Shown here one piece after another: positions 1-815 of a stretch of 6,982 nucleotides of DNA. The notes under the pieces are model-generated. The model made no database searches. It saw only the letters and a list, made by a program, of their open reading frames with translations, and was not told where the DNA came from. This DNA comes from a virus (lineage: Duplodnaviria; Heunggongvirae; Uroviricota; Caudoviricetes), in the IMG/VR virus record IMGVR_UViG_2706794688_000015. One strand, written 5' to 3'. The translations under genes were made by a program, and so were the position numbers. Within the stretch, counting starts at the first letter, position 1; each line of letters opens with the position of its first letter.

Positions 1-120
1 TCAATGATCGGAAGTATGCCAAATCGTGATCGATTGTGATGCCAAACTGTGATCGGAGATGGATGCCAAATCATGATCGATTCGAATGCCAAACTGCGAT
101 CGATTCAGATGCCATTTTGC
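1..120. repeat. Tandem array of ~23-bp direct repeats (approx ATGCCAAAYYGTGATCGATTNNG), 4 full units plus partial units, truncated by the window start
   Basis: ATGCC core recurs at 16, 39, 63, 86, 109 (periods 23/24/23/23). Each unit carries a GATC (6-9, 28-31, 51-54, 74-77, 98-101). The array overlaps the last ~16 codons and the stop of the minus-strand ORF ending at 71. Confidence 0.8.
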
Positions 121-662
121 ACACTGAGTACTTTTTAAGCTTTGAAGCTACTCGACCAGCGTTACTATTAGCATTGGTGACGTTGGTTTTTTCAGCTTCT
201 GTTAAGTCTGAATAGTCCAGCTTCCAAGCCTTATTACATTTAATCTGAGCATCGAGAATATCATTTCTGATAGCTGGAGCGTAACCGGATACATCGCTAA
301 TATTCATTAACTCTTTGCACGATAGCATAGGCGCGTTATTGCGTTCAGTGGTCACGTTACCTGCATTCTTCTTACTGGTCACACCACCGTCATTTGTGGT
401 AGCCGTTTTGCCAGTGGCTGCTGAAATATCAGTTTGACCTACGATTGCTTTAAAGTTAATTTCCTGAAAAGTTAGCTGGATACGAAGACCGTTAGAGATA
501 GTAACATCTTTAGAGGCTTTAAAGTTGGTAATAATGGAATCGTCAATTTTAATTCCATCTTTACAGATAACAGAAATAATCTGCTTCTGGTCACGCCAGT
601 TTTCCAGAGTGTCAATGAAGTTTTCTACTAATTGACCCTGACGAGTTAATAATAAGCTTCCT
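71..662 (-). CDS. C-terminal ~197 codons of a tail-associated protein immediately downstream of the tape measure gene (possibly distal-tail/baseplate-type); open frame with no ATG/GTG/TTG until GTG at 382
   Basis: Frame is open from 685 to the TGA at 73-71 (translation ...[43 protein letters not shown]...). It lies +1 relative to the 50-codon ORF 815..663, which has the strong RBS. The supplied ORF track only reports 71..382 (GTG start). Product guess rests on position after the tape measure gene only. Confidence 0.5.
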
Positions 663-815
663 TCATAATTGCATGTTCTGTGTAGTCACCTGCATAGGGC
701 TATCAAATTCCATGTTTTCAGTTGCTGATAAGGTTAAGAAGGCATCTACATTGTCTCTTAAGTGGAAATAGATGCCATCTTTGCCACTGTAACGAAGCTG
801 ATTAGTGTAAATCAT
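663..815 (-). CDS. N-terminal 50-codon ORF ([50 protein letters not shown]) of the same tail-associated gene, ending at TGA 665-663; likely the true start of the disrupted or recoded gene 815..71
   Basis: ATG at 815-813 preceded by AAGGAGA with 5-nt spacer. The frame terminates after 50 codons while the +1 frame continues open for ~200 codons without a start codon. Confidence 0.5.

Follow-up and report, generated by a model that had tools for sequence, protein, structure and literature searches.

IS-laden decay is typical of Shigella genomes, and the Felix-O1-type phage genus is widely used in typing and biocontrol. A prfB-type +1 frameshift site combines a CUU-UGA-C-like slippery context with an upstream Shine-Dalgarno (SD)-like stimulator. 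In the phage Bas63, gp18 has been seen by cryo-EM to be a tube initiator (TI), a hexameric adaptor between the C3 hub and the C6 tube (PMC12609058). The Bas63 TI gene adjoins the gene for the tape measure protein (TMP; gp17), and an ~100-aa C-terminal extension of TI reaches into the baseplate (PMC12609058). The C-terminal 25 residues of the Bas63 TMP touch the hub and the PA protein. The PLE satellites of V. cholerae encode TAC-TMP-BhuB and make chimeric tails with ICP1 parts (PMC12987554).

We analyzed a stretch of 6,982 nucleotides that is catalogued as a virus (IMG/VR record IMGVR_UViG_2706794688_000015) and is called the window here. An earlier note had treated its genes as phage genes, and that framing was wrong. 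The window comes from a Shigella sonnei chromosomal island of ~10.7 kb with just two tail genes. Two chromosome-sized records (contigs of 4.82 and 4.87 Mb) match it at 100% identity, and its proteins carry Shigella sonnei names in the source records. The two tail genes are an intact TMP gene and, directly downstream of it, a broken gene that we assign below to the TI family. Their parts in the window are as follows.

972..3152, minus strand: intact tape measure protein gene, 726 aa (PHROG 4036, TIGR02675, PF20155)
822..827, minus strand: Shine-Dalgarno sequence AAGGAG of the TI gene (read from the sequence)
663..815, minus strand: ORF1, made of TI codons 1-49, then TTA (Leu), a hybrid codon at the junction, and a TGA produced by a deletion (translation, PHROG 3721, alignment)
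667..668: deletion junction, with 74 nt absent, namely codons S50-G74 except for the initial T of codon 50 (DNA alignments)
122..667, minus strand: TI codons Y75-V256, shifted to +1 relative to ORF1 and lacking a start codon (translation, PHROG 3721, Pfam)
1..121: ISSso4 (IS21 family), left end; the element went in 21 nt short of the TI stop and duplicated 8 bp of target (blastn of locus L003 against L011 and L012)

As a reading of the letters, the earlier description of this gene was accurate. By translation, ORF1 has 50 codons (815..663, minus strand) and ends at a TGA at 665..663. Its product is MIYTNQ...QNMQL, and it has a good ribosome binding site (RBS), with AAGGAG at 827..822 and a 6-nt spacer to the ATG at 815..813. 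The +1 frame, referred to as ORF2, follows a stop at 688..686 and runs open for 204 codons, from 685 until the TGA at 73..71. ORF2 contains no ATG, GTG, or TTG until 382, where a GTG is the first. The break had been bracketed correctly within 24 nt (685-663), a segment that indeed has no homopolymer run. Alignment with homologues, the check that had been asked for, puts it exactly between 668 and 667. The claimed frame change is therefore real, but it is not a single-nucleotide shift, since a 74-nt gap relative to every homologue gives the net +1. Pseudogene, assembly error, and programmed +1 recoding had been offered as options, and only the first has stood up.

ORF1 aligns with residues 1-49 of intact 262-aa homologues. 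Compared with PHROG 3721 (265 positions), ORF1 covers positions 1-51 and ORF2 covers positions 76-258. Therefore, ~24 positions (52-75) are missing, not merely shifted. DNA alignment against Felixounavirus HK3 and three E. coli chromosomal copies revealed a single clean gap of exactly 74 nt, where the junction reads ...ACATGCAAT (to base 668) and then TATGAAGG... (from base 667). The undeleted allele is recognized by CAGGGCAAAC...GTTGG(C/T). Because 74 nt is 24 codons plus 2 nt, the loss appears as a +1 change. The T kept from codon 50 turns TAT-GAA into TTA-TGA, so a stop is created two codons past the junction. Within the lost segment, S50-G74, 13 positions are invariant across a 25-member homologue alignment.

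We considered direct repeats as the cause of the deletion and rejected them, because the flanks share at most 1 nt of microhomology (a T, seen against the closest intact copy, TUM1881) and slippage between repeats is thus not indicated. We infer a non-homologous mechanism. Relative to the closest intact copy, the S. sonnei remnants have 21 synonymous and 5 nonsynonymous codon differences, which suggests that the inactivation of a previously constrained gene was recent. Few nonsynonymous changes would be expected after a recent lesion and are not, alone, proof of lost function. Intact chromosomal TI genes have dN/dS values of 0.06-0.25, so they are under purifying selection, and it is relative to these intact orthologues that the window copy is disrupted.

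The broken allele is inherited throughout the lineage. A 28-mer spanning the junction was found exactly in 9 of 9 independent assemblies, including CP104423.1, CP146292.2, CP037997.1, and CP110404.1. The exact 50-aa product occurs in 2,281 index blocks and at least 1,000 contigs (5,607 index blocks for the neighboring TMP), and we found no S. sonnei genome with an intact TI allele. A TI homologue is present in 408 of 5,426 complete E. coli genomes, none of which reaches 99% identity. Each of the 60 best E. coli matches holds at least 74 extra nt (849-855 nt against 776-779 nt of the query) and sits under a gene annotated as 'phage baseplate protein'; the three copies retrieved encode 262 aa. 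Single ORFs, of 254-265 aa, likewise account for all of the 120 best protein homologues. Therefore, the junction is a lineage-specific fixed allele, neither an assembly error nor a family trait. There was no exact match to the 28-mer in an IMG/VR scan, and a scan of GTDB species representatives returned only 3 loci.

These counts bear directly on a sequencing or assembly artefact, by which the true genome would have an intact gene. The break is in non-repetitive sequence and a local misassembly can happen in principle, but the same junction recurs in all nine independent assemblies, chromosome-sized records among them, and the short product recurs in thousands of index blocks. The absence of 74 nt is also unlike an indel-type error. 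We give an artefact practically no chance.

The homologues also argue against two functional genes, a 50-aa N-terminal protein and a C-terminal protein made from a non-canonical start. ORF1 does have a good RBS, and split tail genes are known elsewhere. However, no two-gene arrangement is conserved among the 120 best homologues, the ORF2 frame lacks the usual start codons for much of its length, the split falls inside the Dit-like fold, and ORF2 is truncated further by ISSso4 and, in many strains, also by IS1. We consider this reading extremely unlikely.

By its sequence, the window gene after TMP can be placed in the tube initiator (PF21821 Dit_like) family. A profile of intact chromosomal homologues matches PDB entry 9ndy_A, 'Tube initiator protein gp018' from a Felixounavirus, with E = 5e-131. 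When intact, TI is 262 aa long and Pfam PF21821 Dit_like spans residues 30-146; an intact homologue scores 73.3 bits against this model (cut-off, 24.2). The position of the gene agrees, with TMP ending at 972 and TI starting at 815, an order shared by HK3 and all islands examined. By analogy with Bas63 gp18, for which the role is known, members of this family would act as a Dit-like hexamer between the trimeric hub and the six-fold tube of Felix-O1-type myophages. In the window copy, no single uninterrupted ORF covers the Dit-like/tube-like fold. ORF2 scores 33.3 bits and matches profile positions 65-118 only. With its deletion and frame shift, this copy reads as a pseudogene of the TI family, not as a functional member.

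The deleted segment falls inside the tube-like (Dit-like) fold. This placing rests on conservation, Pfam coverage, and the existence of 9NDY. An AlphaFold2 model of intact TI, built from the 25-sequence alignment, had a pLDDT of 39 and was unusable.

Programmed +1 frameshifting near CAA-UUA-UGA would fuse ORF1 and ORF2 into a functional, shortened TI. The frames overlap by only 23 nt (685..663), the place where shifting would occur is followed by a stop, and ORF1 has a strong RBS. As in prfB, a short ORF ends at UGA and continues in the +1 frame. Unlike prfB, the local CAA-UUA-UGA-A has neither slippery context nor stimulator: on inspection, ACACAGAACAUGCAAUUAUGAAGG contained no slippery run and no upstream SD-like element, and UUA to UAU would be a poor re-pairing. 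Furthermore, the break is unconserved. It is confined to the S. sonnei lineage, was made by the 74-nt deletion, and occurs in none of the best protein homologues (0 of 120) or best E. coli loci (0 of 60). Nor would shifting restore the full-length product. The fusion would be 25 residues short, with 13 invariant positions among those lost, and in place of the native C terminus it would have an IS-encoded one. The hypothetical fusion scored 34 bits against Dit_like, again at positions 65-118 only, so its match is halved. Recoding therefore strikes us as highly improbable.

We conclude that the broken TI gene is, very probably, a lineage-specific pseudogene made by a 74-bp deletion and an IS truncation in a decaying S. 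sonnei island. In the S. sonnei lineage, an internal deletion removed codons S50-G74, so that the downstream part is now read in the +1 frame and a TGA stands two codons past the junction. Insertion of ISSso4 trimmed the gene 21 nt before its stop, and IS1 is a third lesion in many strains. ORF1 and ORF2 would then be remnants, with no recoding. TI function would have been lost in S. sonnei, to judge from what the sequence retains. The 50-aa peptide is probably still made, given its excellent SD sequence and the intact TMP gene upstream.

The second lesion is apparent from the end of homology with intact TI copies, at window position 122. ISSso4 is 2,641 bp long, is annotated in locus L012, and has hundreds of E. 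coli chromosomal and plasmid copies. Because of its insertion, ORF2 ends in 16 IS-encoded codons and a TGA, from bases 121..71. Window positions 1..125 hold five copies of a ~23-nt motif, ATGCCAAA(C/T)NG(T/C)GATCG, within the ISSso4 left end, and these are presumably multiple transposase-binding sites.

Other insertions lie nearby. The adjacent large serine recombinase, which is the island integrase, is split by a 1,333-bp IS2-type element; therefore, the island is immobilized and decaying. Many S. sonnei strains have an extra IS1 (~777 bp with its duplication) inside ORF2 at about window position 210 (L002, L005-L007, and L070-L072), which shows ongoing decay after the deletion. In S. flexneri CP182556.1 (L068, 8428-10498), the TI homologue is split after codon 75 by a 1,333-bp IS2-type element with a 5-bp duplication, GTGAA. 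This element is of the same type as the one in the S. sonnei recombinase, but its insertion was an independent event. The S. flexneri site is ~5 nt from the right edge of the S. sonnei deletion. The two may share a hot spot, or the deletion may have followed an IS event.

The earlier note had also pointed to palindromes ahead of the gene that overlap its SD sequence. They are real, and the palindrome at 839..824, CCTTTGAAATCAAAGG, includes the SD sequence. RNA folding added the following feature.

833..876, minus strand: hairpin in the TMP-TI intergenic region with a 13-bp stem (876..864 with 845..833; RNA fold, z = -2.95)

This hairpin ends 5 nt before the SD sequence, and its 3' arm overlaps the 839..824 palindrome. 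The hairpin and the SD palindrome could form mutually exclusive pairings that gate translation. The three intact E. coli copies aligned match the window exactly in the hairpin 3' arm and the SD-proximal sequence, which are therefore unrelated to the frame break. A promoter and terminator scan of positions 1..1300 returned nothing.

The intact translation signals raise the idea that the 50-aa fragment has been retained as a dominant-negative defense, poisoning tail assembly of infecting Felix-O1-like phages. The fragment is about 97% identical to the N terminus of Felixounavirus TI, its RBS and upstream gene are intact, and it is fixed in a successful pathogen lineage. Interference with tail assembly is a known defense strategy (PMC11364771). 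Against this, there was no PADLOC match, and the repeated independent IS insertions in TI and the integrase resemble neutral decay. A defensive role is thus very unlikely, and we retain the pseudogene reading.

In S. sonnei, as in E. coli RM10809-3, the ~10.7-kb integrative island is flanked by ymdF and wrbA, and TI is placed last among its genes. The set begins with a small invertase-type recombinase, followed by Dam (in some copies), a helix-turn-helix (HTH) protein with matches to phage replication-initiator PHROGs, several small ORFs, a 236-aa protein, an ~68-aa protein, TMP, TI, and a convergent large serine recombinase. An intact island copy is at L011 991-11714, and others are L013, L015, and L016/L017. 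The same gene order is found inside yecE (DUF72) in other E. coli (TUM1881 and L015). Citrobacter shares this order as well, with a tyrosine integrase immediately outside the other end of the gene set. The family therefore occupies different chromosomal sites with different integrases in E. coli and Citrobacter, at ~10-11 kb, and it is found in E. coli, E. albertii, Citrobacter, and Salmonella.

The island contains no capsid, sheath, tube, or other baseplate genes, and its other ORFs have no structural match in PHROG, Pfam, or PADLOC. Comparison with the whole Felixounavirus HK3 genome found homologues for TMP and TI only. Overall, the island TMP is 30% identical to the Felixounavirus TMP, with ~45 N-terminal residues near-identical. 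Its last 12 residues, D(M/I)LLSSSYPEEE, have one difference from the phage, and a 25-nt stretch at the 3' end of the gene is 100% identical. By analogy with Bas63, the conserved TMP ends appear to be those that contact other tail parts. The ~68-aa protein was considered as a TMP chaperone (TAC) and rejected, because it has no similarity to the Felixounavirus TMP chaperone. Upstream of TMP is one further gene.

3482..4192, minus strand: 236-aa protein, publicly annotated as a 'transposase' (PGAP)

We found no transposase domain in the 236-aa protein, and no match in Pfam, PHROG, PADLOC, or PDB sequences. It is strongly conserved from island to island (the 120 best of its 3,119 matches are 87-91% identical), and it has only 23 representatives in a library clustered at 50%. 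Its AlphaFold2 model (pLDDT 79) predicts mostly long helices and a small alpha/beta domain. A Foldseek search of PDB and BFVD gave no match at E <= 0.001.

TI is a mosaic. Window positions 356..791 are the only part of the 7-kb window with megablast similarity to virulent Felixounaviruses (92-93% identity, best of 213 phage records). The C-terminal third of TI and all other window genes have no such similarity. This pattern suggests recent exchange between chromosomal islands and phages. Outside the window and upstream of Dam, a 63-nt stretch (L003 4561-4623) is 86% identical to HK3 intergenic positions 28801-28861, which are flanked by divergent blocks of phage genes. The island may have borrowed this stretch from a phage as a regulatory sequence.

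The architecture of the intact copies raises the possibility, which we put forward tentatively and hold to be somewhat doubtful, that the S. sonnei island is a dead copy of an undescribed PLE-like family of satellites of virulent Felix-O1-type myophages in Enterobacteriaceae. The members of the island family are discrete, small integrative elements that encode an integrase and a replication initiator of their own. They also have a partial tail module related to a candidate helper phage, and neither a capsid nor other tail genes. If the satellite reading is true, the element could use its TMP termini and the N-terminal two-thirds of its TI, both near-identical to those of the phage, to assemble chimeric tails or to sabotage phage tails. 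Relatives of TI in IMG/VR are on Felixounavirus-type contigs of ~51-94 kb and on contigs of 5-55 kb; none is on an island-sized contig, and these data are uninformative on packaging. In the literature searched, we found no description of a Felixounavirus satellite or of an enterobacterial TMP-bearing satellite.

The frame break itself is an ordinary event, and the satellite candidacy is the sole part that deserves follow-up. For the question as first raised, the outcome is negative: a candidate site of recoding drops out, and the proper annotation of the gene is a pseudogene fragment carrying two lesions. This fragment, now called 'hypothetical protein' or 'phage baseplate protein, partial', is found in thousands of S. 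sonnei genomes. Its intact relatives belong to a conserved, selected, mobile mini-element, the only phage-like genes of which are TMP and TI, tailored to Felix-O1-type tails. If these elements are satellites, then the 'chimeric tail' strategy (published in 2026 for Vibrio PLE/ICP1) would extend to E. coli and Salmonella.

The locus can be set against each of the known systems. It resembles IS-driven pseudogenization in Shigella in that the deletion, ISSso4, the IS2-type element, and IS1 are clustered in a few kilobases. It differs in that the frame-breaking lesion is a clean 74-bp deletion, with a junction that has no IS remnant. The gene is of the same family as Bas63 gp18 and 9NDY and likewise comes directly after the tape measure gene. 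Its N-terminal ~180 residues are about 97% identical to those of phage HK3 TI (~93% at the DNA level), whereas the C-terminal ~80 residues of the island protein are unrelated in sequence to the phage TI. Unlike Bas63 gp18, the window copy has no residues 50-74, is frame-broken and IS-truncated, and is in a 10.7-kb chromosomal island. The likeness to PLE is one of architecture and is proposed for the island family, of which the S. sonnei copy is in any case a defective member. Where PLE has BhuB, the islands have a tube initiator as their second tail gene, and no recognizable TAC was found. Like PLE (PMC12987554), the intact islands are small, integrate by a large serine recombinase, and have their own replication initiator. 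Also like PLE, they have a partial tail module, TMP and a hub-proximal baseplate protein, that is related to a virulent myophage.
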